The notes under the pieces are model-generated. The model was not told where the DNA came from, made no database searches, and saw only the letters and a program-made list of their open reading frames with translations. The position numbers and the translations under genes are program-made. From the NCBI RefSeq assembly GCF_024298765.1, contig NZ_CP101210.1: DNA of 64,000 bases; one strand, 5' to 3'. The number at the start of each line of letters is the position of its first letter. The first letter of the stretch is position 1. The stretch is from Escherichia coli (GTDB taxonomy: Bacteria; Pseudomonadota; Gammaproteobacteria; Enterobacterales; Enterobacteriaceae). Shown here piece after piece: positions 15,974 through 43,533 of the stretch.

Positions 15974-16222
15974 ATGTGTATTGGCGTTCCAGGCCAGGTG
16001 CTGGCTGTCGGTGAAGATATTCACCAGCTTGCGCAGGTTGAAGTATGTGGTATCAAGCGCGACGTGAATATCGCCCTGATTTGTGAAGGTAACCCTGCCG
16101 ATCTACTGGGCCAGTGGGTGCTGGTACACGTCGGATTTGCCATGAGCATCATCGACGAAGATGAAGCCAAAGCCACATTAGACGCGCTGCGCCAAATGGA
16201 TTACGACATTACCAGCGCGTGA
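15974..16222 (+). CDS. hybG: hydrogenase maturation factor (HypC-like)
   Basis: 82 aa beginning MCIGVP (conserved N-terminal Cys). Confidence 0.85.
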
Positions 16223-16229
16223 TGATTAG

Positions 16230-16320
16230 CTTTTGTAGGCCTGATAAGACGCGGCAGCGTCGCATCAGGCATTGTGCTCGATTGCCGGATGCGGCGTGAA
16301 CGCCTTATCCGGCCTGGATG
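16230..16320. repeat. REP/BIME-type extragenic palindromes
   Basis: gcctgataagacgcg...cgcatcaggc and gccggatgcggcg...cgccttatccggcc palindromic units between convergent hybG and yghU. Confidence 0.7.
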
Positions 16321-16344: not shown

Positions 16345-17211
16345 TTACCCCTGACGCTTATCTTCCGTATTCGTCTCGAAATCACTGGCGTCATGGCGTT
16401 CATGCAACTGCTCGTTCAGCGGTCCGTTGATGCGGTTAACAATACGCCCACGCTTCACTGCCGGACGTTCGCCCACTTCTTTCGCCCAGTGTTGTACGTG
16501 TTTATAACTTCCCGCATCCAGAAACTCTGCGGCATCATACACGCCGCCTAACACCACGTTGCCAAACCACGGCCAAATCGCCATATCCGCAATGGTGTAC
16601 TCATCGCCTGCAACAAACTTATGCTGCGCCAGTTGCTTATCCAGCACGTCGAGCAGGCGCTTGGCTTCCATGGTAAAGCGATTGATGGCGTACTCAATTT
16701 TCACCGGCGCGTAATGGTAAAAGTGACCAAAACCACCGCCGAGGAACGGTGCAGCCCCCTGTAGCCAGAACAGCCAGTTCATCGTTTCAGTACGCTTTGC
16801 CAGATCCTGCGGCAGGAAGTAGCCAAATTTCTCCGCCAGATAAAGCAGAATCGATCCAGACTCAAACACGCGGATCGGCGGATTATGCGTATGATCGCGC
16901 AGCGCCGGGATCTTCGAGTTTGGGTTCACTTCGACAAAGCCGCTGGAGAATTGATCGCCATCGCCAATACGAATCAGCCAGGCGTCGTACTCTGCACCAG
17001 TAACGCCCAGCGCCAGCAGCTCCTCAAGCATAATCGTTACTTTCTGACCGTTCGGCGTTCCCAGCGAATAAAGTTGCAATGGGTGTTTGCCAACGGGCAG
17101 CGTTTTTTCATGCGTCGGACCAGAAACCGGGCGATTGATATTGGCGAACGCGCCGCCGGCGGATTTGTCCCACGTCCAGACTTTCGCGGGCTGATAAGTG
17201 TTGTCTGTCAT
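16345..17211 (-). CDS. yghU: glutathione S-transferase-like protein
   Basis: ATG (MTDNTYQPAK) at 17211, 288 aa; GST-like sequence. Confidence 0.85.
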   Translation of the reverse strand: MTDNTYQPAKVWTWDKSAGGAFANINRPVSGPTHEKTLPVGKHPLQLYSLGTPNGQKVTIMLEELLALGVTGAEYDAWLIRIGDGDQFSSGFVEVNPNSKIPALRDHTHNPPIRVFESGSILLYLAEKFGYFLPQDLAKRTETMNWLFWLQGAAPFLGGGFGHFYHYAPVKIEYAINRFTMEAKRLLDVLDKQLAQHKFVAGDEYTIADMAIWPWFGNVVLGGVYDAAEFLDAGSYKHVQHWAKEVGERPAVKRGRIVNRINGPLNEQLHERHDASDFETNTEDKRQG

Positions 17212-41495: not shown

Positions 41496-41850
41496 TAGCG
41501 TCAAAAAAAGCCCCGGCAAGATTTATTGTCGGGGCTATGATAGTAACTGCGGTAGTACATTTATCCCGGAAATAACCGGAGCGATTATCAGGGGTTAACA
41601 ATATTAAATACCCGTAGCGCATCACTAGCGGGATTAAAACAACAATATGGACATCTTAACGATACTCTGCGCCTGCGTGTGCGGAACAGAAACCCTTACC
41701 CGATATACTTGTTATGCCAGAGGTAGCAATTGCGTTAGCGGCGTACTGTTGCTGTAAAGTATAACGCCTATATTTTACAGTTCAGTCCTCTTTTGCTTAT
41801 TACAACCTTAAGTATATCAAGCATATAAAGATAATAAGAGACTGAACAAT

Positions 41851-43533
41851 ATGGTTACCTGGACCCAAATGTATATGCCGATGGGAGGACTGGGGCTATC
41901 CGCTCTGGTCGCCCTGATCCCAATAATATTCTTCTTCGTTGCACTCGCGGTATTACGTCTGAAAGGACATGTCGCTGGAGCAATAACCCTTATATTATCT
42001 ATTCTGATTGCGATATTCGCCTTTAAAATGCCGATTGATATGGCATTTGCTGCTGCGGGCTATGGCTTTATTTATGGTTTATGGCCTATTGCGTGGATTA
42101 TTGTCGCGGCGGTATTCCTGTATAAATTAACCGTTGCCAGCGGCCAGTTCGATATTATCCGCAGCTCGGTTATCTCCATCACCGACGATCAGCGTTTGCA
42201 GGTGTTACTGATTGGTTTCTCCTTTGGTGCGCTGCTGGAAGGGGCGGCTGGCTTTGGCGCGCCGGTGGCGATTACCGGTGCGCTGCTGGTGGGCCTGGGC
42301 TTCAAACCGTTATACGCGGCGGGGCTGTGTCTGATTGCCAATACTGCGCCGGTGGCGTTTGGTGCGTTGGGCGTGCCGATTCTGGTCGCCGGTCAGGTAA
42401 CGGGAATCGATCCGTTCCACATTGGCGCAATGGCGGGACGTCAGTTACCGTTCCTGTCGGTTCTTGTACCGTTCTGGCTGGTAGCAATGATGGACGGCTG
42501 GAAAGGGGTGAAAGAGACGTGGCCAGCGGCGCTGGTTGCTGGGGGAAGCTTCGCTGTCACGCAGTTCTTTACCTCTAACTATATTGGTCCGGAACTGCCG
42601 GATATTACTTCGGCGCTGGTGAGTATCGTCTCACTCGCTTTATTCCTTAAAGTCTGGCGGCCGAAAAATACCGAAACGGCAATCAGCATGGGACAATCCG
42701 CAGGAGCGATGGTGGTGAATAAACCATCTTCTGGCGGTCCCGTGCCTTCAGAATATAGTCTGGGGCAAATCATTCGTGCGTGGTCACCGTTTTTAATCTT
42801 AACGGTGCTGGTCACCATCTGGACCATGAAGCCGTTTAAAGCGTTATTTGCTCCGGGCGGCGCGTTTTATTCACTGGTGATTAATTTCCAGATCCCTCAT
42901 TTGCATCAACAAGTGTTGAAAGCGGCACCCATTGTCGCCCAACCAACGCCAATGGATGCGGTGTTTAAATTCGACCCTCTCTCGGCTGGCGGCACCGCTA
43001 TTTTTATTGCGGCGATTATCTCTATCTTCATCCTCGGCGTGGGCATCAAGAAAGGGATTGGCGTCTTTGCCGAAACGCTAATTAGTCTGAAGTGGCCGAT
43101 ATTGTCGATTGGCATGGTGCTGGCGTTCGCCTTCGTCACCAACTATTCCGGTATGTCCACCACGCTGGCGCTGGTACTGGCAGGTACAGGCGTGATGTTC
43201 CCGTTCTTTTCGCCATTCCTCGGCTGGCTGGGGGTATTCCTTACCGGCTCGGACACCTCCTCTAACGCCCTGTTTGGTTCACTGCAATCGACCACGGCGC
43301 AGCAAATCAACGTCTCTGACACACTGCTGGTGGCAGCAAATACCAGCGGCGGCGTAACTGGCAAGATGATCTCCCCGCAATCTATCGCCGTGGCCTGCGC
43401 CGCGACGGGCATGGTGGGCCGGGAATCTGAACTGTTCCGCTACACCGTGAAGCACAGTCTGATTTTTGCCAGCGTTATCGGCATTATCACGCTGTTGCAG
43501 GCGTATGTGTTTACTGGGATGTTAGTCTCGTAA
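41851..43533 (+). CDS. glcA: glycolate/lactate permease
   Basis: 560 aa polytopic LctP-family ORF. Confidence 0.88.

Follow-up and report, generated by a model that had tools for sequence, protein, structure and literature searches.

The REP and BIME elements of E. coli, their roles as stabilisers and attenuators in 3' untranslated regions and the use of REPs as targets by IS621 are all established already. REPs are short palindromes, with consensus sequences of 30-40 nt, that occupy hundreds of intergenic gaps in E. coli. Under the Gilson/Bachellier naming, REPs are sorted into y, z1 and z2 types and two main BIME classes are defined (PMC3333891). BIME-1 combines a z1 and a y REP in inverse orientation, occurs as a single copy and has a long linker (L), in which an IHF site is usually found; BIME-2 is built of y and z2 REPs with a short S linker and occurs in tandem multiple copies (PMC3333891). 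One of the closest described systems is REP325, which lies in the yjdM-yjdN gap between two co-directional genes of one operon and consists of six tandem units, each made of a y REP, a 13-nt linker and a z1 REP. Its effect is to stabilise the message of yjdM, the upstream gene, and to attenuate, in part by way of Rho, the transcription that continues into yjdN (bioRxiv 10.64898/2026.03.23.713779). In the same preprint, tandem gene pairs with REPs are found genome-wide to be upstream-biased and convergent pairs with REPs to be more highly expressed, and REP effects are described as strongly context-dependent, with no general lengthening of half-life by terminal REPs. Another class consists of REPs located less than 16 nt from a stop codon, which lower translation and stall terminating ribosomes according to the passage of PMC12306157 that cites Liang 2015.

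Here we describe two REP clusters, one between hybG and yghU (cluster 1) and one between sslE and pppA (cluster 2), in a 64,000-nt stretch of E. coli DNA (contig NZ_CP101210.1), referred to below as the window. Both share the traits of the E. coli REP family, including the consensus, a stem interrupted by two mismatches, an orientation that alternates, an extragenic location and variation in copy number. Cluster 1 could provide a handy natural example of a REP325-type unit, present once and between convergent genes instead of in six tandem copies. Cluster 2, like REP325, is found between co-directional genes of one operon, and could provide a handy natural example of a polymorphic REP array that begins 4 nt past the stop codon of a virulence-associated gene. 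We hold with high confidence the reading as a whole, namely that both clusters belong, as ordinary examples, to the REP/BIME family of E. coli, that an ORF opening inside cluster 2 is noncoding at its 5' end, and that any function would be that of hairpins, by analogy with the known systems. The loci open no new question, and the main value of the analysis is a correct annotation.

REP elements in the hybG-yghU and sslE-pppA gaps

Gene order in the window agrees with the RefSeq annotation of E. coli (hybG, yghU, gss and later sslE, pppA, gspS2, gspC), and by BLAST the region 48450-48900 is 100% identical to the type strain, E. coli ATCC 11775 (DSM 30083). A first-pass annotation of this DNA had assigned typical enterobacterial REP palindromes to the two gaps, at 16230-16320 and 48576-48715. 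These coordinates correctly enclose the REP elements, and the assignment is borne out by consensus matches, multi-copy occurrence, hairpin folding and, for cluster 1, a match to the naRNA4 model. The two clusters sit between annotated CDSs, and both had been described as lying at convergent gene ends. This is true of hybG (+) and yghU (-), where cluster 1 lies in the 3' region common to yghU and the hyb operon, which converge on it. It is not true of sslE and pppA, which are co-directional neighbours on the + strand in the same sslE-pppA-gspS2-gspC operon, so that cluster 2 is intra-operon; the convergent label for this pair is the only error in that annotation. The features of both gaps are as follows.

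16220-16222, + strand: stop codon of hybG, neighbour of cluster 1
16235-16270: z1-type REP, consensus matched with 0 mismatches; GTAG foot at 16235-16238 on the + strand, arms 16239-16252 and 16257-16270
16238-16314, - strand: Rfam RF02564 (naRNA4) match, model positions 1-77 of 77, 90.5 bits
16271-16282: short linker ATTGTGCTCGAT, 12-13 nt, aligning to the 13-nt linker of the naRNA4 model
16283-16317: y-type REP, inverted (iREP), tail CTGG in place of CTAC; y consensus with 2 mismatches in the tail
16345-16347, - strand: stop codon of yghU, neighbour of cluster 1
48572-48574, + strand: stop codon of sslE, neighbour of cluster 2
48579-48613: y-type REP, y consensus with 0 mismatches; GTAG at 48579-48582 on the + strand, arms 48583-48596 and 48599-48612
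48614-48643: linker TGATATAAGGCGCATCGGGTCAACACATAT, 30 nt, a repeated BIME linker
48642-48737, + strand: spurious 32-codon 5' extension of pppA; REP and linker sequence, noncoding
48644-48671: z2-like REP in iREP orientation, GCCCGATGCGCCAGCTTATCGGGCCTGG; match to CTTATCGGGCCT, best consensus z2
48695-48713: y REP remnant, CGCAGG/CCCGCATCCGGCA, from alignment with K-12 MG1655 and four other strains
48738-49547, + strand: pppA, T2SS-beta prepilin peptidase, 269 aa; from RefSeq CDS mapping, Pfam and ortholog N-termini

A REP consensus search, which had been proposed as a check, gives matches in both clusters far above chance. The consensus GCCKGATGCGRCGYNNNNRCGYCTTATCMGGCCTAC matches 16235-16270 without mismatch and is matched 0 times in 100 shuffles. 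For typing we used the published y, z1 and z2 consensus sequences (PMC11208160). A y consensus is found at 16283-16317, where both mismatches fall in the terminal CTAC, and at 48579-48613, against 0 matches expected. Four copies of the 12-mer CTTATCMGGCCT lie in the 64 kb (0.28 expected), each of them inside one of the two clusters. Since this 12-mer (at up to 1 mismatch) and the exact head motif GCCKGATGCG are confined to the two clusters and appear nowhere else in the window, no other canonical y or z REP was found in it. BLAST of both regions gave multi-copy matches in 5,425 of 5,426 complete E. coli genomes, and among the matches listed the repeat part of cluster 1 recurs at a median of at least 36 places per genome and that of cluster 2 at a median of at least 39.

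The full REP units have 14-nt arms that are 86% complementary, and folded alone on either strand they reach -20.5 to -21.4 kcal/mol (z -4.4 to -6.1). The GTAG/CTAC foot is present at 16235-16238 and 48579-48582, that is, in two of the four full-length units; at 16314-16317 and 48668-48671 CTGG stands in its place, and at 48696-48699 GCAG, where other strains have CTAC. For both clusters the analysis establishes membership of the REP family, multi-copy occurrence, strong hairpins in either orientation and polymorphism between strains.

The z1 REP of cluster 1, which reads GCCTGATGCGACGCTGCCGCGTCTTATCAGGCCTAC on the minus strand, is identical to the published z1 consensus at 35 of 36 positions and folds at -20.5 kcal/mol on the + strand and -21.4 on the - strand (z -5.1 and -6.1); its y REP matches the published y consensus at 32 of 33 positions and folds at -21.3 and -20.9 kcal/mol. 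The whole gap has z values of -3.7 (+) and -4.0 (-). Cluster 1 has in common with BIME-1 a z1 and a y REP in inverse orientation and in single copy, but its linker is of 12-13 nt instead of the long L type. In a pattern scan the IHF consensus WATCARNNNNTTR was absent from both clusters, including this linker. Because the linker is short and without the IHF consensus, cluster 1 is an 'atypical' BIME.

The likeness of cluster 1 to the REP325/naRNA4 unit extends over all 77 model positions, with 90.5 bits on the - strand and 60.4 on the + strand, both above the gathering score of 59.5. Such a full-length match on both strands raises the question of whether cluster 1 gives rise to a discrete naRNA4-family RNA that, together with HU, bridges cruciform DNA and helps to condense the chromosome, an activity that has been reported for the naRNA4 of REP325 by Qian et al. 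2015 (PMC4550694). We consider this highly unlikely. The model is in effect a REP pair, so any BIME of y-linker-z1 structure matches RF02564, and the proposed function is itself contested (bioRxiv 10.64898/2026.03.23.713779). In addition, a scan revealed no sigma-70-like promoter in the hybG-yghU gap; around cluster 2, none was seen on either strand of 48400-48900.

In cluster 2 the y REP folds at -20.9 kcal/mol (z -4.6), and its stem begins 8 nt past the sslE stop codon. Sequence similar to the adjoining linker is also found 3' of y REPs at narP-ccmH and rlmB-rnr, where BLAST matches extend through the linker. Within this linker, GGCGCATCGGG (48622-48632) pairs with 48645-48655 of the next REP as an 11-nt perfect inverted repeat, and in the + RNA the resulting hairpin at 48622-48655 (-24.6 kcal/mol, z -6.2) outcompetes the z2-like unit's own hairpin (-13.5 kcal/mol, z -2.3). 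The z2-like REP is identical to the z2 consensus in 23 of 27 aligned columns, with 3 mismatches and 1 gap, and its two departures from the consensus in the outer stem, T to C and A to G, are mutually complementary, so that stem pairing is kept. A spacer of 23 nt separates it from the remnant of the third REP, in which GCCGGATGCG matches at 48703-48712 on the - strand and of which only a foot and 12 nt that match the y head are left; this REP is a complete y in K-12 and has lost 18 internal nt in our strain and four others.

Folded as a whole, the sslE-pppA gap reaches -78.1 kcal/mol (z -5.8). The naRNA4 model scores 42.2 bits on cluster 2, under its cut-off. A match to Rfam mir-7385 on this cluster (15.8 bits, E 0.94) was dismissed as a chance palindrome match. 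Compared with BIME-2, cluster 2 has a y REP, a variant z2 (GCCCGAT...ATCGGGC) and a y remnant, amounting to about 1.5 units, and a y-z2 spacer of 30 nt. Neither cluster appears to be a textbook BIME-1 or BIME-2, and both seem to fit the 'atypical BIME' class.

Given that 163 nt of untranslated sequence precede pppA and that pppA has no obvious Shine-Dalgarno sequence, cluster 2 might be supposed to contain a promoter of its own, from which pppA and the gsp genes would be expressed without dependence on sslE. We regard this as very improbable: the scan of 48400-48900 described above revealed no sigma-70-like site, the gap consists almost wholly of REP and linker sequence, and the operon is reported, in the part of PMC5012682 that cites Yang 2007, to be a single polycistronic mRNA from the sslE promoter.

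Strain polymorphism and the IS621 target

Both gaps of K-12 (within NC_000913.3 3113400-3115000 and 3133000-3141000) clearly contain REPs, and both loci vary considerably among strains. Among the matches listed, 3,839 of 5,426 genomes have one that covers 80% or more of the cluster 1 query, and in other strains, such as an ST131 strain, the cluster is cut to the y REP alone. In E2348/69 and strain 317 the tail of the y REP carries an extra 10 nt, CTACATTGGT, with CTAC kept; these are absent from the window and from K-12. The CTACATTGGT indel (window 16313-16317) is flanked by CT dinucleotides, and judged by these flanks it would fit the specificity for C|T cleavage that has been reported for TnpA-REP. 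At cluster 2 the gap is of 129, 139, 147, 163 or 197 nt in the strains compared, with three full REPs past the sslE stop in K-12, two and a remnant here, and gaps of 129-147 nt in other lineages. A locus labelled Citrobacter has a degenerate three-REP cluster that resembles K-12. At a locus whose PppA is 71% identical, no REP follows the sslE homologue, and a non-REP, GC-rich hairpin of 14 bp is found there instead.

Attachment sites of IS621 in REPs have been described (Choi 2003; Durrant 2024, PMC11208160), and cluster 1 contains the exact sequence ATCAGGCCTAC that serves as a natural target of this element (PMC11208160). The target lies at 16235-16245 on the - strand, within the z1 REP, and is empty here. 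In strains S42 and Z0117EC0098, IS621, a member of the IS110 family with a bridge-RNA recombinase, is inserted at the foot of the z1 REP with the CT/AG core on both sides. The order in S42 is hybG, IS621, z1 REP, y REP and yghU, with junctions GTAG/ATACTGT... and ...ATACA/AGGCCTGATAAG and the CT core at both. As DNA, the z1 REP of cluster 1 would offer a natural insertion site for IS621. At cluster 1 strains differ in the number of REPs (one or two), in an indel of 10 nt and in the insertion of IS621, and at cluster 2 they differ in the length of the gap (129-197 nt); such polymorphism is typical of BIMEs.

Such variability bears directly on whether the clusters have any effect on their neighbours. 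It is possible, though less likely than not, that they are neutral litter, the decaying products of TnpA-REP (RAYT) proliferation in tolerant intergenic DNA. The shifts between one and two REPs at cluster 1, the varied gap length and partial deletions at cluster 2, and the reduction of its third REP to a remnant in this strain would all be expected of such litter. Two units, the y REP of cluster 1 and the z2-like REP, are moreover without the CTAC/GTAG foot needed for TnpA-REP recognition (PMC3333891), and the lack of a general half-life effect of terminal REPs mentioned above points the same way. However, each E. coli strain inspected has kept one or more intact hairpins of about -21 kcal/mol beside the upstream stop codon, the distant orthologue, which is devoid of REPs, forms a different strong hairpin in this gap, and genome-wide both tandem and convergent gene pairs with REPs differ in expression from controls.

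The pppA start codon

The mechanical ORF list opens pppA at 48642, inside cluster 2, giving an ORF of 301 aa, just as the first-pass annotation had reported; 48738 had been proposed there as the more likely start, and this proposal is now supported by ortholog alignment, frame-breaking indels between strains, the RefSeq length of 269 aa and a functional short clone. The ORF was opened at 48642 because this is the first start codon after a stop. The G of this ATG (48642-48644) is the first base of the z2-like REP, at the linker/REP junction, so the 32 extra codons are repeat DNA. Of five other strains aligned with the window, Rb-3 and K-12 have TTG in place of this ATG, and a deletion has removed it from O111 RM9322, 1070/13 and DA61218. 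Because indels of 16 and 34 nt intervene between the ATG and pppA among the strains compared, the reading frame from 48642 into pppA is not kept; in three strains an in-frame stop lies 90-108 nt upstream of pppA with no start codon in between.

Homologues lead to the same start. A search with the 301-aa ORF returned 4,911 homologues, of which the full-length orthologues cover 89% of the query (equal to 269/301) and none more than 91%, and the main homologue cluster, with 6,190 member sequences, is of 269 aa. An alignment of 17 PppA homologues from Escherichia, Citrobacter, Edwardsiella, Salmonella, Plesiomonas, Vibrio and Aeromonas shows no conserved N-terminal extension over 48642-48737, which had been named beforehand as the observation that would refute the later start. 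Most of the N-termini fall at the 48738 start and a few lie several residues further in. The two longer database proteins in this alignment have extensions unrelated to this sequence. The Pfam domains A24_N_bact (PF06750, 3.2e-34) and Peptidase_A24 (PF01478, 1.1e-23) are both present, the former from residue 53 onwards in the 301-aa form (residue 21 in the 269-aa form); NCBIfam returned no family for the 301-aa ORF. At the Citrobacter-labelled locus and at the 71%-identical locus, an in-frame stop stands 12 nt upstream of the homologous pppA ATG. RefSeq gives pppA as 810 nt and 269 aa in all six strains inspected, mapping to 48738-49547, and a plasmid clone from E. coli W that starts with ATGCTTTTTGATG (primer ATGCTTTTTGATGTTTTTCAGC) complements a pppA deletion (PMC3707838).

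It could be argued that the strain studied here does make an N-terminally extended PppA of 301 aa, as its ATG at 48642 is in frame and no stop precedes 48738. This is extremely improbable in view of the substitution or loss of that ATG and the broken frame in the other strains, the failure of any homologue to align with the extension, the position of the conserved domain and the sufficiency of the short form. The ATG also lies at the loop/stem edge of the -24.6 kcal/mol hairpin in REP/linker sequence and has no Shine-Dalgarno sequence. The opening at 48642 is therefore an artefact of mechanical ORF calling, by which pppA was over-extended by 32 codons into repeat DNA, and pppA starts at 48738, as already annotated in RefSeq. 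The same list over-extends two other genes: sslE by 4 codons (TTG 44000, against a RefSeq CDS of 4563 nt from ATG 44012) and yghU by 16 codons (GTG 17259, giving 304 aa, against the start at 17211 of a RefSeq CDS of 867 nt).

Possible roles of the clusters as RNA hairpins

A scan for intrinsic terminator-like sites found none in either gap, and our literature search returned nothing on a hybG-yghU terminator. Since neither gap has a terminator-like or a sigma-70-like site, any action of the clusters would be as hairpins. By analogy with the described systems, both clusters likely play the known REP role, in which hairpins protect the upstream mRNA and damp read-through. Once transcribed, the hairpins would block 3'-to-5' exonucleases and so stabilise the upstream messages, which would be those of hyb and yghU in the case of cluster 1 and that of sslE in the case of cluster 2. 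They may also attenuate read-through in part, probably with the help of Rho, and at cluster 2 such attenuation would favour sslE over the downstream secretion genes. Cluster 2 fits the tandem-pair case and cluster 1 the convergent-pair case of the genome-wide comparison.

A close parallel for cluster 2 is with REPs that act as stabilisers and attenuators within operons, such as those of malE-malF and of REP325 in yjdMN, where the array is located 3' of the first, most highly needed gene; cluster 2 is located likewise. We infer an effect of this type at cluster 2, the downstream genes presumably being needed in smaller amounts. In addition, because its stem begins so close to the sslE stop, cluster 2 can be placed in the stop-proximal REP class (Liang, Rudd and Deutscher 2015, as cited in the relevant passage of PMC12306157), a likeness of position alone, at 8 nt. 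By this likeness, the REP of cluster 2 may also lower translation of the upstream gene through stalled terminating ribosomes. At cluster 1, the distance from the hybG stop to the z1 REP is 12 nt to GTAG and 16 nt to the stem, which is borderline for the class of less than 16 nt, and the yghU stop is 27-31 nt from the cluster.

Expression data from K-12 are available in supplements to the 2026 preprint. Among these and the RepRanger supplements, searched for hybG, yghU, yghJ and pppA, we found only DESeq2 rows for yghJ, pppA and yghG and no entry at the level of REPs. The baseMean is 1472 for yghJ and 62 for pppA, a drop of about 4-fold per kb, and about 5 for yghG in a different table of the same supplement (bioRxiv 10.64898/2026.03.23.713779). 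These values suggest a steep 5'-to-3' gradient along the K-12 operon that reaches beyond the REP gap. The drop gives weak, circumstantial support for such roles, but because it is uncontrolled and continues past pppA, it is not assignable to the REPs. The 14-bp GC-rich hairpin at the distant locus is a hint that what counts may be the presence of a hairpin 3' of sslE, rather than a REP as such. Any function must also tolerate large changes, since cluster 1 is often a single REP and cluster 2 ranges over 129-197 nt.

SslE is a vaccine-candidate mucinase. We speculate, while regarding the idea as rather unlikely, that the strain-specific number and integrity of REPs past the sslE stop codon act as a dial for the ratio of SslE to the type II secretion machinery. 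Such a dial would combine ribosome stalling at the stop codon, protection of the mRNA 3' end and attenuation of read-through, and, if it exists, could help to account for the unexplained variation of SslE level between ExPEC strains.

Elsewhere in the window, a full-length match to the Rfam C0719 sRNA (RF00117, 294 bits) is found at 41551-41772 on the - strand, just upstream of a glycolate permease-like ORF at 41851-43533.
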